Source: Takakia lepidozioides (lineage: Eukaryota; Plantae; Bryophyta). From it: a stretch of 64,000 nucleotides of DNA. The position numbers were made by a program, and so were the translations under genes. Shown here one piece after another: positions 27,432 through 61,314 of this stretch. The stretch's first letter is position 1; every line of letters begins with the position of its first letter. Under the pieces are notes generated by a model. The model made no database searches and had not been told where the DNA came from. It worked only from the letters and a program-made list of their open reading frames with translations. The stretch covers positions 9,486,001-9,550,000 of the forward strand of contig CM060732.1 in assembly GCA_030704615.1 (NCBI GenBank), in the 5' to 3' direction.

Positions 27432-27440
27432 AGGGGGGCG
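27432..27440 (+). promoter_or_regulatory. Polypurine tract of element A
   Basis: AGGGGGGCG followed by AT and then TG at 27443. Confidence 0.7.
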
Positions 27441-27442
27441 AT

Positions 27443-33352: not shown

Positions 33353-33592
33353 CACAACATACGAATTGAGAACAATATGCTACCTTGAACCCTAAACCCT
33401 AAATTACACTAACATCACCTATACCAATGTCAATGAATATTTGATTTACCTATTCCTTGCATATTTCATGCATCATATATTTATTCTTCTCTATGTACTA
33501 ACATTTATAAATTGCAAAATTATTCCAGCAATATCAGAACCTTCAAAACCCAAAACCCTACCAAGTTATACAATGGAAATTAGATAATTTAC

Positions 33593-33825
33593 CTTTCGTG
33601 GGATCTTCTTTCCTTGAACATCATCTCGGTATCTAGATTGTTTGCACCGGGGACACGTGATAGCACGCTCATGGTCTCCATAGTACAAGGTCCGATCACA
33701 AGGACATGTTATGGATAATTTTGTAACCCATCCCCACTGAGTCAAGGACTTGTCTTGCCTCTTTTCTCAAGCGTGGCAGTTTTTGACTCTAAATGGGGGG
33801 CGAGGATGTAGTCTCCAATAGTGCA
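33593..33825 (-). pseudogene. Upstream exon of the same CACTA transposase (intron 33592 to 12438 contains Gypsy B)
   Basis: LPRLRKEARQVLDSVGMGYKIIH..CPCDRTLYYGDHERAITCPRCKQSRY...KKIPRK, then a GT donor at 33592. It splices in frame to the AG acceptor at 12438 (KMHYFPIIPRL). Confidence 0.85.
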
Positions 33826-33839
33826 GCATGATTGCAGAC

Positions 33840-36114
33840 ATACCACATGTCGAATGTGGGGTCAGACAGTTTGTCCGGTTTGGGGAAGCTCCACATGTCC
33901 CTTGTACTTTGGGAACCATTCCAGATTTGGAGCCACCGGGTCTGTCCAACCACCCAGCATATTCGTAAGCGCCAAACACCACAAAAACGAGTTGTTGCCA
34001 CCACAATTTGGTTAAGAATGTATCACCTTTTCTGTTGCATCCACATAGGATGTGGCTAGACGATGGAGCTTCTCCAATGTCATCGTGGGCTTCAGAGCAC
34101 GGGAGTAGTGCTTCCCCACCTCTACCAGAAAGTCGGCACCAAGGGCGGGATCAGCTATGGCCACGTACTTTACCATCCGCGACTTGTACTTTATACGGGC
34201 CTACGATTCGAGTGTCGGGAGGGTTAGATTCTTCTCCTTTGACTCCATGTAGAACCTCCGCGCATGTGCCAAATCCTGCTGAATTTTCGTCTGTCAAGAA
34301 TGCGCACATAAGATTAGAGATCCTGCTCAACACTTTTTCTTCTATTGGGGGAGGAGAGACACATTAGTTCAACAAAACAGTGAGGAGCTTTATCCGAAAT
34401 ATGTAGTCCACCATGGCATCCATGCTCAGCCTATACCAGGTTCTGTCTGCCTTTGCCTCCGACTTGCGCAGGAGGTCGGCACTGAGCGAATTGGCAAACT
34501 CTTGCACCCCCTGCTTCCCGACATCCTTCACTCGGAAGAGCATATGGGACAAGTTGGTGGCAATAAAGGCATTCTCAGTCACCCTGCAATGCCACATTTC
34601 CATCAAACAATACTGAAATGGGAATTTTCAACAAATATGAGGATTCGCAATGAAATGACTTACAATCGGATGGGTCCAAAAGCAAGAGGCGTTGTAACTT
34701 ACGAGTTGATGTCCGCCATTGCAGCTTTGAGAAGACTGCGATCTTTGGGCCCCGCAACCTTCAGCACAACACATTCCACGGCAAAATGCCAATTGAGGTC
34801 GTTGGGGTGGGCTTCGGCTATGTGCTCCATCCATGCCAGGAGGCGATGATTGCCGTCCCACACGTAAAACATCTTACCAGACAAGTGCTGGAAAAGAGGA
34901 TCAATAGCAATCGTTCTCTCGAACTCCTCATTTCGCCTTTGCCAATGGGGACCCCATTTGTCCACCTCATCGGAAGTGTGGGCACGGGAAGCTCCGTGGT
35001 CATTCTCAATGGAAACGTAAAACGCGGCAGACCCCATTCGATATCCATCCCGGAAAGAGAATTTCAGCTTGTCGATATCGCCTGGGAGGGCAGGTCTCAC
35101 CACCTGCAATGACACCAAGCGGCAAAGGGGAATCCGAAGCTTGGCCGGGTACACCATGCCCCCCAGCACCCTGCCAATGTTGCTGTGGGTTGCCTCCAAC
35201 ATCTTGGCAGCGGCCAACTTCATATCCGCCTCCGACATGACGTCTGCTGCAAAGGAGTTCTCCGGCAGCCCACCAGGACCGCCAAATCCAGCCTGTATGT
35301 TGCGGGTTTGGGGCCTGGGGATGTCCGGGAGGATGTCATCCTGGTCAGAAAGCTCCCTGTCGTCCTCCTCAACATGGTTAGCCACCGGCGAAACCACCTC
35401 GAGCACTCTCCCCGTCTGTACTGCCCTCTCCCCGGCTTCACCTGGCACAATCCGTGCTCTTTCTGGTGTTCTTTCCTCTCCTCCACTCTCCACCGTATGG
35501 GTAATTGCAGGGGCTGCTCTTGCCCGCGATGGTCTAACCGGTGTGTTACTGCCTCTTTGTGGTGTCTTGGAGGGATCCACCGTCTCTGTGCGTCCCTCGC
35601 TTACATTGGCATCTGTCATTTGGGCACCCCTGGCCTCTTCAGTGGCCTTTTCTCTTTCCTCCTGGCTAGCATTCTGTCCCGCCTGTTCTTTTGCCCTCTC
35701 TTTTGCCCTCTCACGGGCTTTCTGTTTCTTACTAGGGCTAGCAGCAGGGGAGCCCTCTAGGACGACCACCTTTGATTGAGGCGAACTGACACCCTCGCGC
35801 GCACTGCTTACTCCCCCCTCCGCAGCTCGTGACGGCTCTCTCGCCGGGGATTGCATGTGCATAGCTTTCTTCTTCTTCTTTGCGTGGGCGGGCCCTACTG
35901 CATGTGCATCAACAACCTCCATTGCCAGATCTGTTGTCCTCACGTCCTCACGCCCTTCACCTGCCATGCCGCCTGCACCAACCTCCCCAATGCCTATTCT
36001 GTCGTACTCTCGCTGCAGGTCCTCCCGTCCACCAACAAAAGGTTTAAGTTTGCCCTCTCGCCCCAAGTTGGGGGATTCAAACATGCGATGAGTTGGAGCT
36101 GTCGATGATACCAC
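33840..36114 (-). CDS. Spliced gene with low-complexity N-terminus and a ParB/Sulfiredoxin-like domain; 3'-truncated
   Basis: 471-aa open exon 34699-36114 with VRP..DIDKL..SF..GY...FYVWDGNHRLLAW (DGNHR at 34843-34857); GT donor after ADINS; further exons near 34590-34400, 34200-34030 and 33970-33845. Confidence 0.7.
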
Positions 36115-37049
36115 CAGCGTGCCGGGCTCGTCGTCACTCTGTCATTCCCAAAAATCGTGAGAACCAACATCGGTGCCAAAACCAGCATCGCAACGAGCAG
36201 CGCAACCACCATAGCAACAATCGTGGAACAACAATGAAAACAAAACAAGTTTAGGAAGTATGGAGTGCCATGGAACAACAATGAAAACAAATCCAACCAA
36301 TGCCTAAGAATGACATGCACAAGCAGCCTTCTCCAAAGCTGCCGGCTTTGCACACGCATTGCAAACTATGTAAGGTTCACTCAACCGGTAATATGAAACA
36401 CGATGAACAAATGATCAGGAATTCCATAAGACGGGAAAACAAGGTGAAATGTTTTGAAGGCATTTCATCTGCTCAGACATTCTTCTCAGCTCAGCATGGA
36501 TTTCCTTAATTTTTAACCACTCAGACCTTGATCATTCTTCGCAACAGCTCCTGCTTTTGCAATGCAACCATATGCTTCCAGCGATGCCAGGATGAAGATG
36601 CAAAAACAAAGCGAAACAACAAAGCGAAAGCAGAAGTGGCTTGCCTGAGAGTACTCGGCTTCAGTTGGCGCGGGTTGTGAGCAAGACACTAGAATCTCCT
36701 GCTGGAGCTTGAGTTTGGCCATGCGAGAGATTGGCCGTCATCCAAAGTACAAAGCTCTCAACTTCCGCCGCGGTCTGGATGTGGGGTCTCTCTTAGGAGA
36801 GCCACGCCCTTCAGGCGGCATAAGTCCCAGCCAAAAAGAAAAAAGATCTCAGTTTTTTGGGGTACATGCCTCGAATAGAAGTTAATCAGAGTTTAGCATC
36901 AGATTTAGGGTACGTATCGAGGAAGCAACCGCGGAATCCCTGTATCGCCAGCCCGAATCAAAACGGACGGAGGTGGACATTTAATGCCCAACTACGCAAT
37001 TAAATGTCGGATGAAGCCCTCCCTGTCGGATGAAATATGACGCAACACG

Positions 37050-38246
37050 GCCCCGAATTTCCAACGTAGAGGTAATTCGGAGCGCGGAAGGATGGGAATC
37101 CGGCGCCGGATTTCCATCCTGCAGGTAATTCGGAGCGCGGATAAATGGAAATCCGGCGCCGGATTTCCATCCGCCAGGTAGGGCGGCGGGCGAAATTTCC
37201 GTCACGCAGGTAATTCTGCGCGCGGATGGATGGAAATCCGGCGCCGGATTTCCATCCGCCAGGTAGGGCGGCGCGCCAAATTTCCGAAACGCAGGTAATT
37301 CTACGCGAGGATGGATGGAAACCCGGATTTCCATCCGCCAGGTAGGGCGGCGCGCCAAATTTTCGTCATGCAGGTAATTCGGAGCGCCGCAGGATGGAAA
37401 TTCGGCGCCGAATTTCCATCCAGCAGGTAACTCGGATCGCTGGCGGATAGAAATTCGGCGCCGAATTTCCATCCGCCAGGTAAGTCTAACCGCCAAATTA
37501 CCATCCTGCAGGTAATTTTGCGCGCGGATGGATGGAAATCCGGCGCCGGATTTCCATCCACCAGGAAGGGCGGCGCGCCAAATTTTCGTCATGCAGGTAA
37601 TTCGGAGCGCCACAGGATGGAAATTCGGCGCCGAATTTCCATCCTGCAGGTAATTTCAAGCGCCTAATTTCCGCCATGCAGGTAATTCGGAGCCCGGATG
37701 GATGGAAATTCGGCGCCGAATTTCCATTCGCCAGGTAAGTCTAAGCGCCGAATGACCATCCTACAGGTAATTCTGAGCGTGGCCGCTTGGTTTTTCGGAG
37801 AAAAACACAGTAAACTGTTAGTTTTGTGGCTGAAGTCCACTTTTAGACACGTTTTTCATGGACTCCTCGACTGCTAGAGGAAAATCGGAACGGCCCCGGA
37901 TGGAAATTCGGCGCCATTTTTCCATCCTGGGAGGTTTTTATATCGTCCAGTTTTCGGCCTCACCACCCGACCGGACTTCCTTTGATGGGGCCCGGATGGA
38001 AATTCGGCGCCGAATTTCCATCCGGGGGATGCTCTCTGTCGGACAGGTGCCGTCCTCTCCGCCCGAGGCGACTTCATCCGGGCGTCCCCTGTTGGATATT
38101 CGGTGCCGAATTTCCGTCCGGGGGTTGAAATGTGACGGCCAGGTGCCGGCCTCTCCCCCCTCCCCGACTGCATCCGAACAGGAAATTCGGCGCCGTTTTT
38201 CCATCCTGGAAGGTTTTTATGTCGACCAGTTTTCGGCCTGACCCCC
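37050..38246. repeat. Array of 30-bp GC-centred palindromes, left part
   Basis: GGATGGAAATTCGGCGCCGAATTTCCATCC (perfect at 37392-37421; 34 bp at 37613-37646) and variants, about 12 copies. Confidence 0.95.
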
Positions 38247-39177
38247 TGTTAGAGGGCTGCTTGGGACTTAGACGCTTTTACGGGATCTGTGGGGTACCCT
38301 TAATTTTTACACAGACTGAGACCAACAGGAGCCTTAGGGGTGACAGCAACAGGCTTTAGGGGGGAGATACACAGCCCGACACAGTCCATCACAGCCCGAC
38401 ACAGCCGTCACAGCCCGTCACAGTCCAACACAGCCAGTCACAGCCCGATACAGCCACCACAGCTTCGCACAGCCCTACACAGCCCGACACAGCCAGTCAC
38501 AGCCCGCCACAGCCTGATACAACCAGTCACAGCTCGGCACAGCTGGGGGACAGTTATCATTGGCAGGGAACAACGGTGGGGAACGACATCTGAAAAAGGA
38601 ACGTGTACTACAGGGATGACGGTTAGTTAGGAAAGCGGTTAGAACAGCTTGTAGGTAGAAAAAGCGAAGAGCGGGGACGTCTAAAAATCACTTCTGGGTG
38701 GAGGACTTCTGACATCAGGGCTTGGAAATAGAGGGGAGAGCACATCTCTGAGTGGAAAGATGAAGAGCACGGAGTAGGAGAAGTGACGATCTGTTGTTAC
38801 TTGATGAATGTAAGCTGTAGAATTGTAATGTAGAGTAGATTAGAGACACCATGGCTTCAGCCTGATACTTGATAGATATTAATTTGATACATACTTCATA
38901 CTCACACTGTGTAGAGAGACCTGAGTGAAGCTGTGGAATGAATGGATGGAACTTGATAGATTTATGAAGCAAACTGATACTTAATTGCAGATAGTAAGGT
39001 AACTCGCTAACATGAATGCGGGAAGGAGTACAAATAGGAAACACCCCCATGATACACTAGCTGTAGGTCATGACTGATTGTTCTGAGCGGGCTGAGTGCT
39101 TAGAGATTTCCAACTCTTCTATCTTGGAGTTCCCACCTCGGATAGCGAAGGGATGGGTGAGTAAAAGCCGCTCGACA
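38247..39177 (+). repeat. 5' LTR of element C (931 bp)
   Basis: TGTTAGAGGG...CTCGACA; near-identical to 50629-51514 except for minisatellite copy number and scattered changes. Confidence 0.97.
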
Positions 39178-39179
39178 TT

Positions 39180-39196
39180 TGGCGACCATACTGGGG
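39180..39196 (+). promoter_or_regulatory. PBS of element C (probably tRNA-Arg type)
   Basis: TGGCGACCATACTGGGG, 2 nt after the LTR; conserved in the copy at 60318-60334 (minus strand). Confidence 0.8.
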
Positions 39197-39788
39197 AACT
39201 GGGTCATGAACAACCAGATGTAACAGACATCTAGTGGGATCATGGTGGATGGAGAATTAAAGAATTTGATGTGAATCAAATTCCCTGTGAAACTGAGAAG
39301 GAAAGATTGTCCAAATGATTCTTTCAGAGGTTCTTGGAATTGCCAGACGGGTGTAAAGAAAACATTTTTAAAAGAGTGCATGATGCTGACCCTGAATGGG
39401 GTCTGGAGAAAGGAGTGATAAAGATTTATCAGCTGGCCTGTAGAGGAAGAGCTTTGGTTACCAACACAAGTTTATGTGATAGCATTGCTATCCATTAAGC
39501 GAGTAGAGTTTGAAGGCTGGGAGGAAAGAAAGGTGAATGTTTATACTCATATGCATGAAGAGCTTGTACTGGTAAAGAATTGGATTCCAAAGGATATTTT
39601 GTGGATCAAACTCACACCAAGAACAGCTTTCCAGACTTGTTTGCCATATGGTTATATGGTAATGAAGACTTCTAGTATAGCCAAGGGTGCCTTGAAGCTT
39701 GAAAGAAACCCAGGCATATACGAGAGATATTACAAAAGAGAGTTTTGGTTATTGCCACATTAAAAGAAATGAAAGACATGGGACATGA

Positions 39789-42138
39789 GTGATGAAAGAG
39801 AAAGCTAGACTCCAGAGATATTCAGCAAAAAGAGAAAGCTCTCTGAAAGCTAATTATCCATATCTTTGGGAGAGAGGAATAGACATAGGGGAATCATCTG
39901 GACCTCTCACACCATTAAGATCAGAGAGTACATCACCCATACCGGAAGAACTAGAGTTGGATGTCACTCCTTCTTTTTCTTTGCAAGAAAGATTAAGGGA
40001 ATTGGTACGGGAAGAAGATCAATCACGAGGTGAAAGATCTGAGGTACATCCCTGGATAAAAGATTTGACAGAAATCTTTGATAAGAGTTGGCATGGAACA
40101 CCAAAAGCAGGAACTCCAGTTTCTGAAGCAGAGGGTGAAGAAGGAGGAGAGGATGTGGCAGAGCCAATGGAGAGTTCAGACTCTCCAACACCATTGCAGT
40201 TGAGTTACATGAGTGAAGAAGAAACCCAAGGGCAGAACTTGGAGGATGAAAATAGAGAGAAGTTGGAAGAGGAAGAGTATGAAGAAGTAGACCCAACAGC
40301 TGAGGTTGAGACTACAACCAGGACATCCCAACCCGTTGGACCTGGATCAAGTGGAGCACTTGGATCACAGGCCAACGAAGGTGTCGGCTCAGGGGGATCA
40401 GGCGGGCTGCCTGGATCTGGCTCTGGGGGACAGAGAGTGTGGGAAGTAGTGCAACTGGAGCTGGGAATACTGTGAATATCGTGGGGCCAGTAGCAGGGAG
40501 TGCTCAGGGGCCACCACTTGGTGGAAGATCCACCACAACTACAATAGGTCCTCAAGGACCAGCACCAGCAAGGGTGTCAGCACCTGTCAGTGGGCAGAAG
40601 GAAGGGCCACAGATGGCGTTACAACCAACACGGGCAAAACCACCTTTTCCAATATATTCAGGAAAAGGGGATCCCGATGTACACATTAGCCAATTTGAGC
40701 ACATGTGTATATGAACAATGAGAATGGCGATGATGCCAAGATGAGATTGTTTCCTTGTTCACTTATCAAGAAAGCAAGTGAATGGTATGCAAGATTCCCT
40801 GATAATCATTTCCTAACCTGGAATGGCTTGAATACAGCATTCCGAAATAGGTTCAGGACAAGTAAAACTGAGGATGAAGTGTATGGAAGTTTACAACAGT
40901 TAAAGCAAAAAAAGCATGAAACTGTTGAGGAGTATATGGAAAAGATGGAATTGATGATGAAAAAGCTGGGTGTTGTACCAGCACCAGGTTTACAGAAGAC
41001 TTGGTTTGTGAGTGGACTACGACTAGAGTTGCAGAAGAAAGTGGATATGTTACCCCATAATACAGTGGAGGAGGCATTTGAAACTGCAAACAGAATTGAG
41101 CAATTGGGAATGCTCAGGAGAGAGAAAAGGGATGATGAGGACTCTGAGGATGAGTCAGATGAAGAAGAAGAGCAAGAACTGAAAAGGAAGAGTAAGAGAA
41201 AGGAGAAGTTGAAGAGGGATAACTATGATAAAAGATTAGAAGAAATCTTGAAGAAGTATGCCACAGAGGCTGCAACACATTGGAGGAAGGGTGTTTGGTG
41301 TGCAAAGTGCCAGAATGAAGGCCATACCACCACTGAATGCCACATGAAGGAGAAATATTGTATCATCTGTAAGATGGATAACCATTCTACTGAGAATTGT
41401 TACTACAACAGAAGGACAGCTGCAAGAGAACCTAGGCAAGTAAAGGTGCATCAAGTGCAGCCCCAGCCAAGAAGAAACAGTGATCAGGACCACTATGGTA
41501 GGCCTGGTGGTTATAACAATGGCATGGAAGGGAGAGGGAATCCAAGAGGGAATTACCAAGGAAATTCCAGAGGCAACTATCAGGGTAATCCAAGGGGGAA
41601 TTACTTGCCAGGGAATCAGGATTACAGAAATAATCCAAGAGCAGACCAAGGGCGAGGACCCAATGGTGAAGAACTGTGTTACTATTGTAATCAGCCAGGA
41701 CATCGCAAGGCAGCCTGTTCATTCTGGATTAGACACCAGAATGAGATGAGAGCTCCTGTGAATGAGGGGCCAGTGGTGGCAGCTCACATGGTTAGGCCAT
41801 GTGTTGTACCAGAGGTAAGTACAATGATAGTAACAAGAAGCAAAGCCAAACTAATACCTCCAGTAGTTGAGGAAGATGATGATAATGAAGATGGTAGTGA
41901 TATGCCTGAAGATGATGAGGCTTGGGGAGATGAGAAGGAACTGCACAAGGAAGTGGCAGATACCATAAGGGAAATGCAGAAGAGTACTGATATTCCTGTG
42001 GTAGATTCCTCTGATTCTGATGGAGAAGAAGAAGTGAGTGAGGACGAAAGGAAGAAAGAAGCTGCAGACATGCAAAGTAATGAAGGGACTTTGGCTGAAG
42101 TGATATGCCAGACCAGAGCAGAGATTACCATTGGATAG
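39789..42138 (+). pseudogene. gag: Gag of element C (frameshifted)
   Basis: YSGKGDPDVHISQF, RLFPCSL..ASEWY, LKQKKHETVEEY; three CCHC knuckles. Confidence 0.92.
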
Positions 42139-42141
42139 CTA

Positions 42142-45100
42142 TTGGCTGTGGCACCTTATTGTAGACACAGGCTGTATCAAGCAATCAATCAAATTGCCCA
42201 GGAGACAGGAAACACAGACCTAAACAGCAAGGTGACCAATTATAATGTGAAGCCGGAAGGGCGAGAAACAGTCATGGACTTTGATGATTCTATGGCAGTA
42301 ATCCAATTGAGAATTGGAAGCACAGAACTAACTGATGTACTGATAGATGGAGGCTCTGGAGTAAATGTCATGACAGACCAATTAAGGAAGAAGCTTGGTC
42401 TAAGTAACATGAAACCAGCCCCATTTACAGTAACAATGGCAGATCAAAGAAGTGTACAGCCATTGGGATTGATAAGAGGAGTTAAGATACAGATACAAAA
42501 GATGATCTTTATGATCACAGTAACTGTGTTGAAGATGGATGAAGTCATGGAGGCTTACTCCTTATTATTGGGACGTCCGTGGTTGAAACAGGCCAGGGTA
42601 TTCCATGACAGGAATTCTCAGTTACTAACTGTGCATAATGGGATGCACGAGATACAAATTACCACTAAGAAATCTAGTAGATTACCTGCTACAAGAAGAC
42701 CTCGAGGGGTCAGAGAGTATGACTGGAGGGGAGGACTGGATGAGGAGCAGGAAGCTACCCTGTTCGATGCACACCCAGAGTGGGAGCAGGTTGCAGAGAT
42801 GCGGCTGGAAGGCCTAAGTTGTTTAAGAAGTATCTGATGTGGTGTAGTGTCAGCAACACCAATTGAAGAGGAAACCAGCAGTTACCCATCACATTTCTAT
42901 GAAGAAAGAGAAGGAGAAATGGAAATCCTAGAGGAACCAGCCACTGTGAGTTTACAGGATGAAGTGGTGACTGGTTGGACAATCACAGCTGATGAGCAGG
43001 TGAGGGAAGTGAATGTGGGAACTAAAGAGGAACTGAGGATGGTGAAGGTAGGAGCTGATTTGGAGCTAAAATTCTTTGAAGAAGCTAAGAGTTTGTTCAT
43101 CAAATACAGAGATGTATTTGCTTGGAGCTACGAGGATCTAAAAGGGATACCACCTGAGATCTGTCAGCATAAGATTGAACTGGAACCAGGATCAGTACCA
43201 ATCAAGCAGGCAAGGTACAAAATGAATCCCAACTATGCACAGAAGGTTGGAGAAGAGATCAAGAAGTTGGCTGAGGCTAGGTTTATATACCCAATAGAGT
43301 ATACAACTTGGTTGTCACCCATTGTGATAGTTCCCAAGAAGAATGGTAAACTGAGAGTTTGTGTGAACTATAAGAAGTTGAATGCTTGCACGAAGAAAGA
43401 TCCATTTCCCTTGCCATTCACAGAAGCAGTATTGGACACTGTGGCAGGCCATGAGATGTACTCATTCATGGATGGCTTCAGTGGTTATAATCAAGTGCAA
43501 GTGGCAGAAGAAGACCAGGGAAAGACAACTTTCATCACAGACTGGGGTGCTTATGCATACAAAGTCATGCCTTTTGGACTTTGTAATGCACCAGCAACCT
43601 TTCAGAGAGTGATAAGTGAATCTTTTCATGAGTATCTGGATGATTTCATGCAGGTGTTCTTGGATGATTTTAGTGTGTACAGCTCTAAGAATGAGCACTT
43701 GCATAAATTGGAGTTATGTCTGGCCAGATGCAGAATGAGAGGTCTGGGCCTGAATCCAGAGAAGTGTACTTTCTGTGTGAACTCAGGGGTGCTTCTGGGA
43801 CACATTGTGTGTAAGAGGGGACTTCTTGTGGATCCCAGGAAGACAGAGGCCATAAAAGCCTCACCACCACCAGTAAATGTTAAGAATCTAAGGAGATTCC
43901 TTGGACAAACCAGTTATTACAGAAGATTTGTCAAAAGGTATGCACAGATAGCAGCACCATTGAGCAAGCTTCTGAAGAAAGATGCAGTGTTTGCATGGAC
44001 AGCTGAATGTCAACAGGCTTTTGAGGAACTTACATTGTCAGTAACAACTACACCTGTGCTGATTAACCCTCACTGGCATGTGGTATTTCATGTTCACTGT
44101 GATGCCTCAGGAGAAGCGTTGGGAGCGGTGTTAGCCGAGAATGTTACAGGAAATATAGATTCACCTGTGTACTATGCTAGCAGGTTGATGAACAGTGCTG
44201 AAAGGAACTATAGCACAACTGAAAGAGAAGCACTGGCAATGATTTATGCAGTCAAGAAATTCAGGCATTACCTATTGGGAAGAAAGTTTATGTTTTATGT
44301 GGATCACCAGGCTCTGATATATCTGGTGAACAAACCTTTGATAAGTGGAAAAATAGCGAGGTGGTTAATAATCTTGCACGAGTTTGAGTTCGAAGTTGTT
44401 TACAAGCCTGGCCATTTGCATCTTGTGGCAGATCATTTGTCACGACTAACAACAGGAGAGGCCGCCACAGGAGTAGACGATCAGTTACCTGATGCGAGTT
44501 TATTTGTAATGGAGGTGCAAGGAAGTGCAGATGAATGGTTAGATTGGCAGTGGCCAATCAAATACTACCTTACTCATGGTCAGTGCCCACCTAGTTATGG
44601 TAAGGAGCAGAGGAAGAGAATCGCTATCAAGGCTTTACCTTATACTATGGTAGGAGGCAGAATGTATAAGCTAGGACCTGATGGAGTACTTAAACGATGC
44701 TTGTACCACCATGAAGTAAATAAAGTTTTGGAGGAAGTTCATAAAGGAGTGGCTGGAGGTCATTTTGGAGAAGATACTACTTGCAGGTTACTGGTGGCCT
44801 ACTTTGTTCAAAGATGTACACAAGTATTGTCAGAGTTGTGATGAATGTCAGAGGCTAGGACCTTTGCAGAGATCTGGGAAGATGGCTTTGCATCCTACAA
44901 TGCCTACTGAACAATTTCAGAAATGGGGACTAGACTTTGTTGGACCAATTAACCCACCAGCCAAGAATACACAGAACAGGTACATAATTACGGCCACTGA
45001 TTATACTACGAAGTGGGTGGAAGCTAAAGCTTTGAGGGACAACACAGCCAAGTCCACAGCAAGGTTCCTGTATGAGAACATACTTACACGATTTGGCTGT

Positions 45101-45800
45101 CCCTTGGAATTTATCAGTGATCAGGGAAGTCACTTCATTAATGAGACCATTGAACTATTGACTAAAGAGTTCATGATTGTGCATAGGAAGAGTACAACGT
45201 ATTACCCACAGGGTAATGGGCAGGCAGAGGCTACCAACAAAATACTATGTACTATCTTGGCTAAGATAGTCAATGCAAACAGAACGGATTGGGATACAAA
45301 GCTGCTGACAGCTTTGTGGTCATACAGGACTTCATATAAAGTCACCACTAAGTATACACCATTCCAATTAGTTTATGGTATGGAAGCTTTACTTCCAGTG
45401 GAATTCCTGTTACCTACCATGAGAACGGAATGGGGAAAGAGAATGGAATTGCAAGATTCAATTAAGGTCAGGAAACATGAATTATACCATGTGGAAGAAG
45501 TACGTGCTGATGCAGCTGATAACATGACCAGAATTCAGATGAAGAGAAAGGAACAGTTTGATGAAGACAAGTTAAAGACTTTTAAGACGGGAGATTTGGT
45601 TCTTTGGTTGCAGAAGAAGGGAAAGATTAAAGCTTCTAAGCTTAAATCACCATGGAAAGGACCTTATGTCATACAGAAGATGTATGATAACAACACCGCC
45701 ATGTTACAAACCATTAACAAAGAGATGCTGGGAAGAGTCAATGCCAATAAGTTGAAGGGGTACAGTGGTATCCATGACAAACCATTGCAGCATGATTTGC
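42142..45800 (+). pseudogene. pol: Pol of element C (PR-RT-RH-IN)
   Basis: LIDGGSGVN; DGFSGYNQ, MPFGLCNAPATFQR, FLDD; HCDAS, EREALA; WGLDFVGP, SDQGSHF, QAEATN, WKGPY; stop at 42835 and frameshift near 44780. Confidence 0.97.
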
Positions 45801-45903
45801 ATGTTGAAACGCAGAAGCAGTCACGGGCTGCGCTAGTGATACCAACGGAGTATGGAGCACTTGTCGCTAGGCCGAGCATATATGACCAGGGCAGGCAGTA
45901 CAA

Positions 45904-46310
45904 GTGCGACACAGCCTATCACAGCTTACCACAATGCGACACAGCCTATCACAGCCCATCACAGTGTGGCACAGCCTATCACAATCTATCACAGCCCATC
46001 AAGGCGCGACACAGCCTATCACAGCCCATCACAGTGTGGCACAGCCTATCACAGCCCATCACGGCGCGACACAGCCTATCACAGCCCATCACAGTGTGGC
46101 ACAGCCTATCACAGCCCGACACGGCGCGGCACAGCCTATCACAGCCCATCACGGCGCGACACAGCCTATCACAGCCCATCACAGCGTGACACAGCCTATC
46201 ACAACCTACCACAGCGTGTCACAGCCTATCACAGCTTACCACAGTGCCACACAGCCTATCACAGTGTACCACAGTATGACACAGCCTGTCACAGCTCAAC
46301 ACAGCCTACT
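45904..46310. repeat. 10-bp CACAGCC minisatellite downstream of integrase
   Basis: ACAGCCTATC/ACAGCCCATC units in exact 10-bp register. Confidence 0.97.
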
Positions 46311-46970
46311 GGGGTTACACAATCCATAGGATCAATGACAGGTGGACGTGGGTTAACATCCGGAGAGTGGCCGGCGGAAAAGTGGACGGAGACACATTTA
46401 GAAATGGACACGTGGACGCCAGGGCGAGACACACAGCCGGACATGGATTGCAAGAACGACTGTCATCAAGGAAGAAGACAAAATTGGCCGTCAAAGTACC
46501 TACCCGGCACATTAACTTATTATGGGCCCATTAATGCATACAGGGAAAGGGTAACGGAACCCTTTAAAAGAACCAAAAAGCGAAATCCATGTCACATGTG
46601 CTATCCTAGTGGACAAGTGGAAAATCCATGGAAGGAAATTAAATTACAAATCAAATCACACAGCCAATAGCCAATCATGAGCCAGAATTACTTGCAGAAG
46701 GTATTTTCCAAGAAGAGAAATCAAGAAATTGGAAGGATTCTGAGCGCAAGAGTCGGCGTCGTTCCAAGTAACGGGCGTCTCGTCAAGAGAGACAATCAAA
46801 GCTATAGCTTTGAAGCTATGGCGGAAATAACAGACTACCCGCTCACCTTACTACTTACGCAAAGTAACAAGGACAGACGAACGGAGAGTACATTTTCTCT
46901 AAATCGCTACTTGCAAGCCCCACAGGCTTACAAGCACTTACCCATTTCATTCTGCGCCAACCATACTTTT

Positions 46971-49900
46971 ATGTTTTGTGCCCTGCAGGCGTTTCTTCAA
47001 TTGTTGCAACCAAAACCTGCATGTTTGTCCAGAATGAAGAGAGTGAGAGGAATGGAAGATATCAAGGTGAAAAGCACCACAATCTTATAGAAGCAAACGA
47101 TCGCTGCACCACAGGCGGTGCAGCTACTGAAGGAGCTGCGATTGGAGGGATTGCTACGCAAGGACTGGTCCTTGCATCATTGGCAGTTCATGATACAATT
47201 CCTTCAAAACTTTGAGCCTCGGACAGGAGTTACTCAGGTGAGGGGAGTAGATATAGAAATTACTCCCCAGTACCTGCAGCAACTGTTTGATTTGCCATCA
47301 GGACATGTGGAGGTGGATGAGCACAGGGCAAGATTGCAGATAGGGAATTTGTTCCAAGAAGGGAGTTTCTTTAAAACTCAAGGTTTTGCTTGTACCAAAG
47401 CCGAGTACCCAGGGCTTAGGGAGGTTGGCCAAATCTTGAACGTTCTGTTTGCCATGAAACAGAACCAACAGTATTTGAGCAGGTCCTTCACAGAGGAGAT
47501 CCTGAAAGCTTTGAGGGGAGAGGATGTCGCTTGGGCGGAGTTAATGTACAACGGATTGGTGGACGAGATGAAGAGGTTACAGGGCACTACTGCAAAGTCT
47601 CCGATCATTGTGTCTGGTCCAATCATTGCTCAAATAATTCTTGATTCTTGCATACTTGATACTCGGGAGAGAAAGGAGATGGGAGTGTTTGAAACAGAAA
47701 CCACTGCAATTGAAGAGCAAGGCTCTTCACACAGTGAGGGTGGACTGGCAGTGCAACCCCAGTCTAAGAGACAGAGGCGGGGAAAGATTGTAGTGGCGGA
47801 TCCACTGGCTTCACGGAAACCGCATGATAATGTTTCCCAAGCTCTTGTGCAGGAAGGGGCACAGCAGCACAGAGAGCTGCTATTATTGGAAGCAGGGCCT
47901 TCAGAGAGGGAAGAGGAAGTCACTTCGATGTCACAGCCACCACAGCCAATTGACTCTGTTGTTTTAGAGGTTCCACAATTAGTATATGCTGTGACATCAC
48001 CCCCAATTACTCAAGAAGGAGAAAGATTAGACATTCCCACTACAGAACAGGTCGTGGCCGAAATTGAGAAGGGTGACCTTCTCTATGAAAATTCAGGCTT
48101 GATAAGGGAAACAATGATTCCAGAGGTGCAGCGAGTGTCTAGGGGAAACCCTGCTGTGCATGTAATAACCACACCTGTGATGGAGGTACAAGGGGGAGAA
48201 TATCAAGACACTGCAGCACCTGTGGTGGATGAGGTGGTTCAGGAAGAAAATCTGGTAGGGCAATGGCCTGAATGGTTCGTGAGGCATCACACTGTTGAGG
48301 ATCAGGGAGAACAGCAGCAAACTCACCATGATGACCCTCAGCATGCCATGCTTATGAGTTCCATAAGCATGACACTTAATTTGTTGGGCACTTATGTGAA
48401 ATCCCATGTTCCATCTACCCAATTGACAGCTTTGAGGGAGGAACTCAGGAAGGAGTTTGAGGCTCGACTTGCCACTGAGTGTGCAAACAAGGTTGATGAG
48501 GAGGTCACTATCAAGTTACAGCAAGAGTTAGAGGATACAACAGCTGCTTTGCAGTTGGCCAAAGAACATTTGATTGAAGCAGGCCTCGCGCAGGACCAGT
48601 TGCACGAAGCACATAAGCAACAACTATACCAAATGCAGGTTAAACATGAGAGCAAGTTGCAAGAAGTAAATGCACTACATACGGAGTTGCAGACAGTGCA
48701 TGACAGGATGGCCATACAATGTGCTACACTCACAACTACGCTTGAGCAAACTACAAAAGAAGTTAACAACCAAGCGGAAAGATGTATAAAAGCACAGGCA
48801 GATAATGTCGAGCAGACAAAACTCATTATTGATATGAAGAATACAATCTGTCACAATGAGAATACTTTCAAGCAATACTGGCAGGTTGAAGCTACCCAAG
48901 AGAGGTACATCCTGGAATTGCAACAAACGCTCATGGCCAATAGAAATGAACTCTCTGTGGCTAACAAGGCTTGGAAGGGGCCAATAATCTGCTGCTGCCT
49001 ATGCGAGTTTGGTTGAACCTCATGCGAAGCGCATGGAGGCTTTACAGCAGCAGTTAGATATGTACAAACTCAAAGAGGAGCAGACTCTCAGAGGTACCAC
49101 AACCAACTTGGTGGATAACCACCTTCTGCAGGTCTGGTTAGCACAAGGACCAGTGGAAGGCAAAGCACCACGAAAGCTCACCCAAGCCGAGATGAATGAG
49201 CTCAGGCTGCAGGTGCAAAACATTGCCACAACTACTATAGACAATGTCTATAGTAGGATAGCAGAGCTACAAGAGGATGTAGACGGCCTGCAAACTCAGG
49301 TGGAGGACCTGACATCAAATATTGACAAGAGAGTCTTTGTACCTGAGGAGCAGCTGATGGCTTCTTATTTACAAGCCAGAACTTTAGCTTTTCAGTCTTC
49401 TTCGCAGGGGGTGCAGGAGATGCCAGTGGTACAAGAGCCAGTGCTACCAATACCACAACAAGTGACTGTGACAGTAGCTGACCCTGTTGTTACTACAACC
49501 ACACCACAACCGCCACAGCCTGAGGTATGGGGGGATGCTGCTTTTAACCCACCTAAAACTCCTGCTGCACGGGAGTACAGTCGGGCTATGATTATGCCCT
49601 TCAACCAGATTTCCATTGTGTTGGATTTGGCTTGGAAGGAATTTAGTCCTCCGCAATCGTTGGCACATTACTACCAAATCATGCGCATTTTGCTACCAGT
49701 GGCAACTAGGACTAAGGTTCTTCCGAACAATCGACCCATTGAGGATCATCACTTTGCGAGATACTGGCATGAGGCAAGTACCATGTTGAAGGAATTAATT
49801 GCCTTCCAAGTTGTACATGGATTCATTTATACCAAGACCAAGGAGGTAGCAAGTATTGTCATGGGCTGTGGGCTATACTACGCTGCTTGTTTTCTGGCAC

Positions 49901-50589
49901 GTTATCACATTGAATAGCAGAAGATGCAATCGCGCTTTCTGAGTTATTCCAGTGGGGATCATTGGATCTTACTTGCAGTGCCACCTCATATGTACCTATA
50001 TGAGGCAAAAGTTATGATGCAAAAGAATTCTCAAATTCGTTCATGGTTTCATGCGGCCTGGAACAATTTGTCAACACAGAAATTCGGGCCTGACGATATT
50101 TTCTTTAAGGGCCATGAGGCATGGAAAAACTTGCACAATTCACAAGTCATTGGTACACCACTTACCTGGACAGACAAGGAGTTCAGGGTCTTCACCAATT
50201 TTGCAATTCAGCGCTTACAACAAGTTTTACAGATTAAACTTCCAGACATGGTGGGACCACATTGTATGCCCCAGAGGATTCCAGTTAGAGTTCGACCGTT
50301 AAAACACCTCAGGGGGGAAGACGATTCTGATACTACTGGTTCTTCAGCGGACTCTTTTGACATGGCAGAGGACTATGCAATTCAGATGGCAGAGAAGAAG
50401 CGACGGGGATCTCCTATGCCTGAAAGATTACCTCGATATCAGCCAAATGAAGGACTGACATTTCCAGGTAGTGCTCAATCATCTCCCTCAACCAGTGACA
50501 GGACACGGGCTCGCACACGGAGTCCTTCACGAGACTCTCAACGTCACAAGGGTGCTCGCTCACAAAGGTTTGCTAATCCCAAACAGTAA
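46971..50589 (+). pseudogene. Extra sense ORF of element C (about 1200 aa; Athila-ORF/plant-transposon-like N-terminus plus coiled coil)
   Basis: ORFs 47118-49016, 49009-49917 and 49924-50589 are joined by single lesions; QVRGVDIEITPQYLQQLFDLP motif; Q/E/L-rich heptads; conserved in the second copy at 61315-64000. Confidence 0.8.
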
Positions 50590-50610
50590 ACCGTGAGGAC
50601 ACGGCTTTTT

Positions 50611-50624
50611 GAGAGGAGGAGGGG
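50611..50624 (+). promoter_or_regulatory. Polypurine tract of element C
   Basis: GAGAGGAGGAGGGG just upstream of the 3' LTR. Confidence 0.9.
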
Positions 50625-50628
50625 TAAA

Positions 50629-51514
50629 TGTTAGAGGGCTGCTTGGGACTTAGACGCTTTTACGGGATCTGTGGGGTACCCTTAATTTTTACACAGACTG
50701 AGACCAACAGGAGCCTTAGGGGTGACAGCAACAGGCTTTAGGAGGGAGATACACAGCCCGACACAGCCGTCACAGCCCGTCACAGTCCAACACAGCCAGT
50801 CACAGCCCGATACAGCCGCCACAGCTTCGCACAGCCCTACACAGCCCGACACAGCTAGTCACAGCTCGGCATAGCTGGGGGACAGTTATCATTGGCAGGG
50901 AACGACGGTGGGGGAACGACATCTGAAAAAGGAACGTGTAGTACAGGGATGACGGTTTGTTAGGAAAGCAGTTAGAACAGCTCGTAGGTAGAAAAAGCGA
51001 AGAGCGGGGACGTCTAAAAATCACTTCTGGGTGGGGGACTTCTGGCATCAGGGCTTGGAAATAGAGGGGAGAGCACATCTCTGAGTGGAAGATGAAGAGC
51101 ACGGAGTAGGAGTAGGAGAAGTGACGATCTGTTGTTACTTGATGAATGCAAGCTGTAGAATTGTAATGTAGAGTAGATTAGAGACACCATGGCTTCAGCC
51201 TGATACTTGATAGATATTAATTTGATACATACTTCATACTCACACTGTGTAGAGAGACCTGAGTGAAGCTGTGGAATGAATGGATGGAACTTGATAGATT
51301 TATGAAGCAAACTGATACTTAATTGCAGATAGTAAGGTAACTCGCTAACATGAATGCGGGAAGGAGTACAAATAGGAAACACCCCCATGATACACTAGCT
51401 GTAGGTCATGACTGATTGTTCTGAGCGGGCTGAGTGCTTAGAGATTTCCAACTCTTCTATCTTGGAGTTCCCACCCGGATAGTGAAGGGATGGGTGAGTA
51501 AAAGCCGCTCGACA
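50629..51514 (+). repeat. 3' LTR of element C (886 bp)
   Basis: Direct repeat of 38247-39177. Confidence 0.97.
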
Positions 51515-52310
51515 CCCCCCGACACGACTTCCTTTGGGGGGGCCCGGATGGAAATTCGGCGTCGAATCTCCATCCAGGGGATGCTCTCTGTCGGACACGT
51601 GCCGGCGTCTCCGCCCGAGGCGATTTCATCCGGGCGTCCCCTGTTGGATATTCGGTGCCGAATTCCCGTGGTTGAAATGTGACGGCCAGGTGCCGGCCTC
51701 TCCCCCCTCCCCGACTGCATCCGAATGGCCCCGGATGGAAATTCGGCGCCGTTTTTCCATCCGGGGAGGTTTTTATGTCGACCAGTTTTCGGCCTGACCC
51801 CCCGACACGACTTCCTTTGGGGGGGCCCGGATGGAAATTCGGCGCCGAATCTCCATCCAGGGGATGCTCTCTGTCGGACACATGCCGGCCTCTCCGCCCG
51901 AGGCGACTTCATCCGGGCGTCCCCTGTTGGATATTCGGTGCCGAATTTCTGTCCGGGGGTTGAAATGTGACGGCCAGGTGCCGGCCTCTCCCCCCTCCCC
52001 GACTGCATCCGAACGGCCCCGGATGGAAATTCGGCGCCGTTTTTCCATCCGGGGAGGTTTTTTATGTCGACCAGTTTTCGGCCTGACCCCCCGACACGAC
52101 TTCCTTTGGGGGGATCCGGATGGAAATTCGGCACTGAATTTCCATCCGGGGGATGTTCTCTATCGGACAGGTGCCGGCCTCTCTGCCCCAGGCGACTTCA
52201 TCCGTGCGGCCCCGGTTGGATATTCGGTGCCAAATTTCCATTCGGGGATAGTAATGGGACGGCACGGTGCCGGCTTCTCCCCTTCAGCCGACATCATCCG
52301 GACGGCCCCC
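51515..52310. repeat. Palindrome array, right part (about 285-bp higher-order unit, about 2.7 copies)
   Basis: GACACGACTTCCTTTGGGGGG at about 51521, 51804 and 52093; each unit has three GGA(TG)GAAATTCGGCGCCG-type palindromes. Confidence 0.93.
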
Positions 52311-52545
52311 CACTTTCTGACTGCATACCGTTGGCAATTATTACGCAAAGACCAGGGGCCGCATTCCGGAGACAAGGTTCATTAACACTCTGACTGTGGA
52401 TTTTTGAGATAGTTGGCTCCCTGGATTTGGATCAGGCTTCGTCGCTCGGACAATTCGGCACCGCATTCCTTTCCATCGCTGCATCCCCCTTCTACCAGGG
52501 AGCTTGCCCGCATGCCATCCTGGGAGTCTTGTGTGCACATCTCCC

Positions 52546-53875
52546 ATGGCGGAAAACCCAAGCGCTATAGTGTACTGCCCTCCTCACGAGCATAGAGCTT
52601 CATTTCCGTGCAGAGGGGACATCTGCCGGGTGATGGAGAAATATCTGTGCGTTCGATACCACCTGAAACCGGGGTCGGTTTTTTTGGAGGAGGAAAGGAA
52701 GGACTCAAACGGCGTTGTTGTCGAGAGTATTGTTGTGCTCCACGATGATTTCGGCGATGGCAGGGAATGGCGAGTTCCACCATCGGACAACGTCATATAC
52801 AGGGCTGTTGGGGACTTCATTTGCCCGCCAAATGCACCTTCTATCCTGGCGCCTTCATCGAAACAATCCGCAAATCAGAGAGTGGGTACCTCAAAGAGAG
52901 AAGTCCGCAACGAAGTAAATCCAGAGCCGAACCCATCAATGAAGACGAGCGAGAACCGGGTTGTTCACAACCTGTCCAACTCAGACGAGGTCATGGAAGT
53001 TCCGAGATCGTCCTGGAGATCAGGCAAGTCCTCAATGGACGTCAGTGGACGAGGGAGTCATATTCCCAGCACGAGCACCGCAGTTCGATCTATTCTTGAA
53101 ATTCTGCGAGGGCTTCACATGGAGGGACACCGCTCGGAGCTGGCTAGGCTGGACTACAGCAAGTTCGCAATTAAATCGGTTACATGCCTTCCCGCAGACG
53201 TCGACCGTAATATCTTCTTTGAGTTCCCTCCTCGGGCGGACTACTCGAGGGCGTCCGGAATGTTGACAGATATGGATAGAAAACATGACGTCATCCTTGG
53301 TGCGTTACCAAAACCACCAGCATGAAGATGCTCGATGGTGTGCGGGTGCGCTACGTTGTTTGTGCGGGCGCGTTGCGGTGTTTCTCCCCAACTTGCTTCC
53401 ACATTAAATCCAGAGGTCACAGGAACGAGACCGATTGGACAGGCACAACTCATCAACCATTTCGAGCTCAGGAGAAGGTTCCGAACTCCACATTTAAGTG
53501 TGCGCATTGCAAAGAACCACCACACTGCATGTCTGTTTGTAATGCCAAGCAGTTCTATGTGTTGCACCGTTTCCCTGACCTCACCCGAGCTTGCATACAC
53601 GTTGGTTCCCATTGTCACAAATTAGCGAGGGGGAACTCGCGGGAGGCTGCCCACGAGGCAGAGCAGCTCGTTTAGGAGGAGGTTAAGTTGAGACCGGGTG
53701 CCAAACCCAAACAGATACAGCTCCAAGCCGCCCAAGTGGACAGTCCCCCAAGGAGAGGACGGAATTTTTGAGAGGCATAGTGGAACTGATGCATCACAGA
53801 GCTCCGAGGATGGGGGGGATGAGGGGGATGAGGAGGAAGGCGGGGCAAGTTCCTCGGAGGGTGTAGGAGAGTAGT
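52546..53875 (+). pseudogene. Cys/His-rich (GCM-like) ORF paralogous to the N-terminus of the MULE transposase; no DDE domain
   Basis: HLKPGSVFLE, FFEFPP, MDRKHD, VCAGALRC..TC, CAHC..C..C, TRACIHVGSHCH align with 58862-57850; frameshift near 53290. Confidence 0.75.
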
Positions 53876-53999
53876 GCTCATTCCGGCTATGACAGTTACG
53901 ACACACTTGTATAGATGTGGCTTGCCACAAAATTTGCAATAAAATGTTGCATTTCATTGCTATGACGAGTCCACTGGTGCCAAATTCCAACTTCAAATG

Positions 54000-54109
54000 A
54001 CCCTATTTCCGTGCCTCCTAACCCTATTTCCGTGGACACACAATGGTCCGCTCATGCTTCTTTTTTTTTCCGCTCATGCTCATGCCCCTCATGAAATAGC
54101 AACCCCCCC
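54000..54109 (-). mobile_element. Putative DNA transposon terminus (GGGG followed by ATGAGC repeats)
   Basis: CCCTATTTCCGTGGACAC...CTCATG repeats...GAAATAGCAACCCCC resembles 60070-60194; the Gypsy fragment is cut exactly here. Confidence 0.6.
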
Positions 54110-54790
54110 TGTAAACTCACAGTGGCTGGTTCCTCTAGGATTTCCATTTCTCCCTCTCTTTCTTCATAGAAATGTGGTGGGTAACTGCTTGTTTCACCCT
54201 CAATTGGTGTTGCTGTCACTACACCACAACAGATACCTTTTAAACAACTTAGGCCTTCCAGTTGCATCTCTGCAACCTGCTCCCACTCTGGGTGTGCAGC
54301 GAACAGGGTAGCTTCCTGTTCCTCATCAAGTCCTCCCCTCCAGTCATACTCCCTGACCCCTCGAGGTCTTCTCATAGCAGGTAGTCTACTAGATTTCTTA
54401 GTGGTGATTTGTATCTTGTGCATTCCATCATGCACAGTTAGTAACTGGGAATTCCAGCCATGGAATACCCTGGCCTGTTTCAGCCACGGTCGACCCAGCA
54501 ATAAGGAGTAAGCTTCCATGACTTCATCCATTTTCAACACAGTTACTGTGATCTTAAAGATCATCTTTTGAATCTGTATCTTAACTCTTCTTATCAATCC
54601 CAATGGCTGAACACTTCTTTGATCTGCCATTGTTACTGTAAATGGGGCTGGTTTCATGTTACTTAGACCAAGCTTCTGCCTTAATTGGTCTGTCATGATA
54701 TTCACTCTAGAGCCTCCATCTATCATTACATCAGTTAGTTCTGTGCTTCCAATTCTCAATTGGATTACTGGCATAGAATCATCAAAGTCC
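54108..54790 (-). pseudogene. pol: Protease region of another family C copy
   Basis: Closely similar to 42276-42958 in reverse orientation. Confidence 0.95.
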
Positions 54791-60194: not shown

Positions 60195-61314
60195 ATTGTT
60201 TGGACAATCTTTCCTTCTCAGTTCCACAGGGAATTTGATTCACATCAAATTCTTTAATTCTCCAACCACCATGATCCCACCAGATGCCTGTCACATCTGG
60301 TTGTTCATGACCCAGTTCCCCAGTATGGTCGCCAAATGTCGAGCGGCTTTTACTCACCCATCCCTTCGCTATCCGAGGTGGAAACTCCAAGATAGAAGAG
60401 TTGGATATCTCTAAGCACTCAACCCGCTCAGAACAATCAGTCATGACCTACAGCTAGTGAATCATGGTAGTGCTTCCTATTTGTATTCCTTCTTACCTTC
60501 ATGTTATCAATTTACCTTACCGTGTATACTGAAGCATCAGATTGCTTCAGTATCTACTATGTTCCAATTAATCATGCATTCATTCCACAGCTTCTCTCAT
60601 GTCTCTCTACACAGTATGTTTGTATCGATTCAGTATCGGATTAAGATTAATCATGTATCATGCCTATGCCATGGTGTCCCTAATCTACCCTACTGTATAA
60701 TTTTACAGCTTGCATGAATTAAGCCTCAATCAAGTCATCATCTCCTCTTCACTGTTTCCGCTCTCTGTTACGTCTCCCCTTTCTGAACAAGTCGCCCTCC
60801 TCCCGAAGTGCTCCTCTTCCTGTTGCCGCCCTGCCTAATCTACCCACAAGCTGTTCTAACCACCTAACTAACTAACCGTCACCCCTAAAGTAACATGTTC
60901 CCTTTGCAGATGTCGTTCCCTGTCAATGATAACTGTTCCCCATGTACACTGTGACAGGCTGTGTCAAGCTGTGCCGAGCTGTGACTGGCTGTGTATAGCT
61001 GTGTCGGGCTGTGACTGGCTGTGCGAAGCTGTGTGGGGCTGTGTAAAGCTGTGTCGGGCTGTGACTGGCTGTGCGAAGCTGTGTGGGGCTGTGTAAAGTT
61101 GTGTGGGGCTGTGCGAAGCTGTGTCGGGTTGTATCAGACTGTGTCTAGCTGTGATAGACCGTGACAAGCTGTCTACCCCCCCCCCCCTAAAGCCTGCGCT
61201 TGCCACCCCTAAGGCTCTTGTTGGTCTCAGTCTACCATTCATAAGTCTGCGCAAAAATTAAGGGTACCCCACAGAACCCGTAAAAGCGTCTAAGTCCCAA
61301 GCAGCCCCCTAACA
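60195..61314 (-). mobile_element. 5' LTR (60337-61314), PBS and start of leader of a diverged family C copy
   Basis: Reverse complement starts TGTTAGGGGGCTGCTTGGGAC and ends CTCGACA, followed by TTTGGCGACCATACTGGGG; contains the CACAGC minisatellite. Confidence 0.93.

Follow-up and report, generated by a model that had tools for sequence, protein, structure and literature searches.

A Mutator-type transposon remnant of Takakia lepidozioides with a ParB-fold gene and a palindrome array as candidate binding site

Two papers of 2025 on algal transposons propose, without a test, that ParB-type helper proteins bind and modify the element by which they are encoded (PMC12477816; bioRxiv 10.1101/2025.02.11.637652). 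In the brown alga Ectocarpus, the element Sola1-1_Ec32 carries, opposite the transposase, a gene for a 1104-aa ParB-like/N4-N6 methyltransferase, and similar proteins are found in green and red algae (PMC12477816). In red-algal Plavaka elements, whose accessory genes include PAG3 and PAG2, genes that join ParB to a 2-oxoglutarate (2OG) oxygenase (PAG3) stand beside arrays of inverted repeats and have homologs on Mutator elements of Chondrus; according to the same source, VANDAL is the only demonstrated case (bioRxiv 10.1101/2025.02.11.637652). Transposases of Mutator-like elements (MULEs) combine a WRKY-GCM1 DNA-binding domain, a catalytic core and a C-terminal SWIM domain (PMC1702500). We analysed 64,000 nucleotides of the bryophyte Takakia lepidozioides (assembly GCA_030704615.1, contig CM060732.1, positions 9,486,001 to 9,550,000, forward strand), hereafter the window, which hold the remnant of a two-gene, Mutator-type transposon with a ParB-fold gene, a palindrome array and a transposase (Table 1). 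The basic design, already published in 2025 for brown and red algal transposons, is not new. What appears new at the sequence level are the land-plant hosts, the Mutator-type carrier, a methyltransferase that is fused to ParB and in most cases degenerate, and a candidate site whose core is conserved. Our literature search found no land-plant description of ParB helper genes on transposons; the supplements of the algal papers may list plant cases.

With Gypsy C, a retrotransposon inserted later into the element, taken out, 6,992 bp remain between 33843 and 54107. A CCCCC target duplication is present at both flanks of Gypsy C, which split one repeat unit of the array, and its two long terminal repeats (LTRs; 38247-39177 and 50629-51514) differ by 13 substitutions in 879 aligned columns. 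An earlier note on this DNA had described about 7 kb around Gypsy C, with a minus-strand ParB/Srx-fold gene, about 2 kb of palindromes and a right end resembling that of the adjacent MULE, and had suspected a Mutator-related element whose ParB protein might be fused to an amino-methyltransferase. These points are borne out by the results below, the fusion being found in relatives of the gene, of which the window copy is cut ahead of the second domain.

That the parts belong to one element, left unproven by the same note, is now very probable, given the clean duplication around a Gypsy that splits a single repeat unit, the similar depth across the parts and the layout of a metagenome locus, L004. 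Contig depth, a rough guide to copy number only, was in the public run X5 106-269 for the ParB gene, 214-243 for the transposase and 217 for the right end, against 9.9 for the flanking CACTA piece; the pattern in X1 was the same (183,000-360,000 vs 500-1,100). High depth over the two genes and the right end hints at an abundant, likely high-copy family. The ParB gene was also considered as a part of the flanking CACTA element and rejected as such, since CACTA depth was more than 100-fold lower in X1 and more than 10-fold lower in X5, and since an X6 contig departs from the window sequence at 33843, about where the gene is cut.

The comparison set comprised 17 metagenome loci with 29-41% GC. 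L003 and L004 represent one locus (98.9% alike), in which a minus-strand transposase of the same clade (9014-7050, 35-37% to the relatives P0169/P0170) is followed by palindromes at 9091 and 9215 and then by a plus-strand ParB gene, which reaches the methyltransferase exons and holds three further palindromes in an intron. A ParB gene on a DNA transposon, on the strand opposite to the transposase, was found in both the window and L004. L001 has arrays in the same two places, with no detectable transposase in 6.8 kb upstream, and L017 shows a decayed tandem array, also without transposase.

The ParB gene of the window matches aa 238-567 of a Ceratodon protein, P0008, which maps to four exons and down to 33882. 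Homolog searches retrieved four near-length proteins and one longer, namely P0008 itself (M758_1G295400, 1147 aa), and a profile search gave 980 representatives at E <=0.001; among 10 of these, Riccia sorocarpa accounts for 5, Adiantum for 2 and Ceratodon for 1. No relatives were found in the viral contigs searched. A WDGNHR motif lies in the minus-strand frame 34702-36141, whose end holds the ParB-like domain. Searches of Pfam and of PDB sequences with this domain returned no significant match. Its AlphaFold2 (AF2) model, built on 61 sequences, reached a predicted local distance difference test (pLDDT) score of 94.8, and structure searches matched it to KorB (Z 7.8, root-mean-square deviation (rmsd) 2.4, 90 aligned residues), PadC (Z 7.5) and sulfiredoxin (Z 6.5); 12 of 13 rows are chains that we assign, some of them presumptively, to the ParB/Srx superfamily. 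Foldseek listed Noc, PadC and Srx at probability 0.99 with E values of only 0.03-0.06, and phrog_1033, ParB-like, was matched at E 0.025. The ParB/Srx fold is thus supported at the level of the model, through the agreement among structure matches and not through one strong score. GNH and VR are near-invariant in the 61 aligned sequences (G113, N114 and H115 conserved in at least 90%), WDGNHR being the commonest form (16/61), and we take DGNHR to be closer to the Srx/SerK/DndB-type motif than to the GERR of partition CTPases. The model of the Ceratodon protein shows a confident helical region behind the ParB domain. Separately, P0008 and a second Ceratodon protein, P0168, are 96% identical, yet their locus tags place them on different chromosomes (1G, 4G) in two assemblies, a pattern expected of a mobile gene.

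The array consists of 19 matches (at most 7 mismatches) to the 30-bp palindrome GGATGGAAATYCGGCGCCGRATTTCCATCC, 12 to the left and 7 to the right of Gypsy C. All of them lie inside 37090-38206 and 51546-52243, with none elsewhere in the window, and the rejoined array spans 1,881 bp. Its left end lies about 370 bp ahead of the inferred start of the ParB gene and its right end about 300 bp ahead of that of the transposase, so that it fills the gap between two genes pointing away from each other. Of the 24 perfect palindromes of at least 12 bp in the window, nine sit in its left half, among them all 7 of at least 20 bp. Four copies carry a symmetric double change that preserves the palindrome, possibly one event that was then amplified. 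The observed/expected CpG ratio is 1.0-1.3 in the array vs 0.1-0.9 elsewhere. Repeat periods of 53, 85, 96, 51 and 42 bp come close to whole helical turns of 10.5 bp, none deviating by more than 0.15 (p ~0.008, post hoc). The 30-bp palindrome (window 37995-38028) was also met, in different flanking sequence, in a contig of a second organism from run X8, and other contigs of that run match the ParB gene.

A core of this palindrome recurs in a distant family. Loci L001, L003/4, L009 and L011, 76-83% alike, form one family with palindromes upstream of the ParB gene and in the intron ahead of the methyltransferase exons. Their palindrome, CAACTT-TYRRYRYYRA-AAGTTG, fits TTCGGCGCCGAA, the 12-bp core of the window's palindrome, with methylation-type decay, and one L004 copy holds the core almost intact. 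The ParB domains of the window and of this family are only 36-41% identical, and almost no DNA is alignable between the window element and these loci (three matches of 29-60 bp). Retention of the core in DNA that is otherwise near-unalignable points to a protein-binding site. Core matches, with the shuffle maximum in brackets, numbered 13 (3) in the window, 7 (2) in L001, 5 (3) in L004, 4 (2) in L011, 2 (1) in L009, 3 (2) in L017, 2 (2) in L003 and 1 (1) in each of L010 and L016; as the core pattern was built after the sequences had been viewed, the shuffle test overstates significance. The binder of the palindromes is probably the ParB-fold protein, here termed the helper, and not the transposase. 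Indeed, the neighbouring element of the same clade (54791-60199) has neither a ParB gene nor a match to the 30-bp palindrome, which favours the helper, although this neighbour is possibly a deletion product. A second family of ParB genes has a palindrome of the GGGGAGC-N4-GCTCCCC type 1.5-2.7 kb upstream (L002 199-790, L006 131-260). Its GGAGC-N4-GCTCC form was matched 5 times in L002 vs a shuffle maximum of 1 and 0-3 times in the other 16 loci, a weak signal.

On the other side of the array, the Cys/His ORF (open reading frame) that the earlier note had called GCM-like is present on the plus strand, in two frames (52408-53325 and 53289-53675). It is not, as had been implied, a separate gene; it represents the truncated N-terminal part of the transposase. 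Its translation can be aligned to the N-terminal end of the transposase in the neighbouring element (27-38%) and to aa 179-409 of P0170, a full-length relative with a DDE-like core and a C-terminal SWIM-like motif. Contigs of four public runs were compared with 52250-54170. Other copies have an extra base at 53289 in three of the four runs (X6 being without cover there) and lack the stop at 53673 in all four; contigs depart at 53734 in 4/4 runs, and others enter at 53736 in X1, X5 and X7. Judged from these departures and entries, this copy has lost the transposase core through deletion. Two other readings of the ORF were discarded: a stand-alone GCM transcription factor, since its counterpart in full transposases is their N-terminal part and other copies continue past 53734 in all four runs, and a truncated DNA-binding protein common to the whole family, with an acidic tail, since no listed contig runs across the 53734/53736 join.

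The right terminus at 54107/8 shows TGAGC repeats and a terminal C run (54103-54107/8). It is placed there because other contigs at 54108 either extend the flanking Gypsy or show another flank, and it is similar to the terminus of the neighbouring element, at 60199. The motifs MFDH, FMADS, CLFHW and NLAE occur in P0169/P0170 and in the neighbouring element, and they may mark a DDE core with a CxxH pattern. SWIM (PF04434) was matched in the neighbouring same-clade element at E 0.0015 and 18.4 bits, just under the cut-off of 19.6. The Mutator assignment rests on these presumed motifs, on the sub-cut-off SWIM match and on an architecture as described in PMC1702500. The MULE families of Pfam did not match transposases of this clade, nor was any match for the transposase found in PDB sequences, PHROGs or NCBIfam. 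The zinc domain has a conserved Cys/His pattern without match in Pfam or PDB sequences, and its Atlas scores are all below 0.9.

Full-length relatives of the ParB gene, found in moss, liverwort and fern, have an N6/N4 methyltransferase domain as their last part, the N-terminal ParB and C-terminal methyltransferase parts forming one protein in P0008, in P0160 of Riccia (1207 aa) and in the L004 gene. The PF01555 domain, with motif IV before motif I, was detected only in relatives; P0008 scores 30.4 bits and P0168 scores 31.4 bits, above the cut-off of 26.7, and P0160 stays below it with 23.7 bits. The catalytic consensus of beta-class N6/N4 methyltransferases is (D/N/S)PP(Y/F/W). Motif IV reads DTPF in Ceratodon (2 sequences), DVPF in Adiantum, DLPT (2) and DMPS in Riccia, DVPS in L001 and L004 and DIPD in a fragment at the left end of the window, so that the canonical PP is present in 0/9 sequences and the aromatic residue in 3/9, missing in the other six. 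Some of the nine come from decayed copies; yet DLPT and DVPS each recur in two copies of one family, which suggests that the catalytic aromatic residue was lost at family level. With motif IV degenerate and this loss likely, a non-catalytic role is rated above a catalytic one for the domain in this lineage, though Ceratodon and Adiantum, with DTPF/DVPF, may have an active enzyme. In the full-length Ceratodon model, built on a shallow alignment, the methyltransferase part is not confidently folded (pLDDT ~30).

As a working model, in which our confidence is evenly balanced, a helper dimer binds the palindromes, closes on a nucleotide, coats the shared promoter and so keeps both genes expressible. 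The dimer would recognise the two-fold symmetric palindrome through the helical region behind the ParB domain, and nucleotide binding at the VRP/DGNHR site would close it as a clamp, as in bacterial ParB. Several copies would load and spread over the shared promoter, where their occupancy would exclude host CpG methylation or recruit transcription in the manner of VANC. The methyltransferase domain would probably serve as a DNA-binding or base-shielding module and not as an enzyme, its catalytic aromatic residue being mostly lost. In its widest form, which we hold to be rather unlikely as a whole, the proposal is that a transposon system widespread in seedless land plants possesses a nucleotide-gated ParB clamp of bacterial type that loads at a palindrome with a core conserved across distant families, spreads over its own element and shields CpGs from host silencing with a mostly disarmed methyltransferase domain, as a ParB/parS-like machine on plant chromatin and a second anti-silencing system independent of VANC.

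Several observations weigh against this model. None of the listed contigs from other copies of this family spans both the ParB gene and the transposase, a Gypsy-free joint is absent among the 15 joints listed of 297, and an upstream transposase is seen in one of the three long metagenome loci (L004, and not L001 or L017). The core had 0 matches in L002 and in 8 other of the 17 loci. These proteins have no Pfam match to ParB or MULE, structural matches stay below a Z of 8, and alignments to Noc/ParB lengthen to about 250 columns only at rmsd 12-17 Å, so that a helix-turn-helix (HTH) is not established. Finally, the CpGs of the array decay like those of LTRs here (5/31 differing between repeat units vs 5/28 in the LTR pair). 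CpG protection is thus not visible in this copy, whose array, as far as CpG decay tells, is methylated like its surroundings; in a dead copy such lack of protection is expected, and it says nothing on active ones.

Among the alternatives, the helper could be an active methyltransferase that writes N4-methylcytosine (4mC) or N6-methyladenine (6mA) on its own CpG-rich palindromes, a self mark blocking host 5-methylcytosine. The above-cut-off PF01555 scores of P0008 and P0168, matches to phage and bacterial DNA methyltransferases and the aromatic residue kept in three of nine sequences would agree with it, as would the activity proposed for the algal proteins (PMC12477816) and the existence of 4mC in a liverwort (bioRxiv 10.1101/2021.02.12.428880). 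We consider it unlikely in view of the missing PP, of the aromatic residue lost in six sequences, including DIPD of the window fragment and DVPS of L001/L004, and of a domain that failed to fold confidently. Somewhat more doubtful is that the helper binds the palindromes for transposition, as a clamp pairing the ends of a long element, or for KorB-like repression of the transposase, and not for anti-silencing. Here the closest folds, DNA clamps and a repressor (KorB, Noc, ParB), the operator-like filling of a divergent promoter and the lack of visible CpG protection speak in favour; the arrays, however, were seen in promoter and intron and not at the terminus that was mapped, a chromatin role is suggested by the fused methyltransferase-type domain, and a dead copy need not display protection. 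Doubtful to a further degree is a regulation of the shared promoter by the zinc domain of the transposase, with the palindromes as its sites and the ParB gene as cargo with another role. The array does end about 300 bp from the transposase start, and a Mutator transposase alone can activate cognate copies (bioRxiv 10.64898/2026.08.24.746577), but the neighbouring same-clade transposase is without such an array, the metagenome family has a second array in an intron of its ParB gene, and in L001 both the arrays and the ParB gene are present without detectable transposase. That unrelated pieces were joined by nested insertion and deletion, as a nest of at least six elements, a remnant with two deletions and the missing contig across both genes might suggest, is very improbable given the similar depth across parts, the gene order, orientation and palindrome core repeated in L004 and the opposite-strand arrangement found also in Ectocarpus (PMC12477816).

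With these findings the algal design now includes mosses, liverworts and ferns as hosts and a Mutator-type element as carrier. A candidate binding site is at hand, with a core common to distant families, and the usually degenerate methyltransferase motif bears on whether the protein writes a mark. Apparently intact ParB-methyltransferase genes are present in Ceratodon purpureus, a transformable moss, so that function becomes testable in a model moss. A ParB clamp sliding on plant chromatin, if true, would surprise the fields of both bacterial chromosomes and transposons.

Table 1. Coordinates of the element, its parts and its flanks in the window.
Feature	Position	Strand	Remarks
Two-gene Mutator-type transposon remnant	33843..54108		~7 kb without Gypsy; left part lost at 33843, internal deletion 53734/53736
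ParB-(methyltransferase) gene, 5' half	33843..36722	-	pseudogenised
Inferred exon, ParB gene	~36722-36645	-	GC donor (inferred)
Inferred exon, ParB gene	36138-34703	-	
Inferred exon, ParB gene	34583-34394	-	donor AT here, GT in other copies
Inferred exon, ParB gene	~34285-34030	-	one stop
Inferred exon, ParB gene	~33944-33882	-	
ParB/Srx-fold domain	34705..35145	-	VRP and DGNHR motifs
Palindrome array, left part	37090..38246		12 copies of GGATGGAAATYCGGCGCCGRATTTCCATCC; spacings mostly 53, 85, 96 bp
Gypsy C, later LTR retrotransposon insertion	38247..51514	+	foreign to the element
Palindrome array, right part	51515..52243		7 copies in 96-bp subunits of a 289-bp unit
Mutator-type transposase, 5' half	52546..53734	+	N-terminal domain and Cys/His zinc-binding domain ('GCM-like ORF')
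Acidic 3' end of reading frame, 3' region, right terminus	53736..54108	+	likely transposase tail
CACTA-type transposase fragment	33590..33842	-	flank only, adjoins cut ParB gene; label presumed from motif pattern
Gypsy fragment	54108..54791	-	flank only, hosts the insertion of the right end
Neighbouring decayed element	54791..60199	-	same transposase clade, whole transposase with putative SWIM
Separate ParB-methyltransferase gene fragment, 3' half	1..1225	+	another copy; degenerate motif DIPD

The surrounding DNA is eukaryotic and repeat-rich, with remains of Gypsy, CACTA-type and Mutator-type elements, of which at least six are nested in the window, and with fragments that resemble what we take to be pentatricopeptide repeat (PPR) genes. 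The fragment at 1-1225 appears to be another ParB-methyltransferase copy, its family identity with the main element not being established; it is cut at 1225 by an end that starts with GGGG, carries TGAGCC repeats and resembles the ends of both Mutator-type elements in the window. A CACTA-type transposase gene (11000-12530 and 33351-33842) is interrupted by a 21-kb nested Gypsy block with CACAA on both flanks, and another CACTA piece, with DUF4216, lies at 7403-8221 on the other strand. A Gypsy element at 16512-28138 codes for a C5 cytosine methyltransferase ahead of the reverse transcriptase (PF00145, E 1.2e-13, ~22800-23400) and for a PHD finger behind the integrase (~27040-27180, E 4.2e-11); Gypsy elements with a C5 methyltransferase have been published for charophytes and dinoflagellates (PMC5890265). 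Behind its integrase, Gypsy C has ~3.5 kb of extra coding sequence (47091-50589) without confident Pfam match; a second copy lies at 61314-64000. Arrays of 10-bp CACAGCC-type units (18260-19200, 38369-38543, 45903-46304, 50751-50855 and 60949-61170) are found in at least two Gypsy families, both in LTRs and in non-coding internal sequence. Two decayed repeat clusters, 15013-15950 and 29900-30500, are 75-83% alike and presumably resemble PPR coding sequence.

When set against the known systems, the element resembles, as far as descriptions go, Sola1-1_Ec32, with which it shares a ~1,100-aa protein of ParB plus amino-methyltransferase on the strand opposite to the transposase. Sola1-1_Ec32, however, belongs to a brown alga and has a Sola1 transposase, whereas the relatives here are from land plants and the transposase is Mutator-type, and the accessible passages of PMC12477816 mention no palindrome array. 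Like the red-algal Plavaka elements, it pairs a ParB-like accessory gene with tandem inverted repeats, and in both cases a PF01555 methyltransferase comes with the element (here in relatives). The Plavaka elements, which belong to another superfamily than this Mutator-type carrier, divide these domains between two genes, one joining ParB with a 2OG oxygenase and the other joining the methyltransferase with SET (bioRxiv 10.1101/2025.02.11.637652). Here ParB and methyltransferase are one protein, with no 2OG fusion in full-length relatives.

The VANDAL/VANC system of Arabidopsis (PMC10398659) likewise unites a Mutator-type element with a helper protein, and its non-coding regions carry motif arrays in tandem. 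The targets of VANC are short, fast-diverging motifs, unlike the long palindrome found here, whose core is common to distant families; the helper here has a prokaryote-type fold, and the function shown for VANC is for this element a proposal. Bacterial ParB/parS, KorB and Noc share with it the predicted ParB/Srx nucleotide-binding fold and clustered palindromic sites and differ in that no ParA partner was seen here and the HTH is not established. Finally, in a layout like that of MULEs with WRKY-GCM1 (PMC1702500), transposases of this clade have an N-terminal Cys/His pattern, a putative catalytic core and a SWIM-like motif at the C-terminus; the present element departs from these in having no Pfam MULE match and in combining two genes with a palindrome array.

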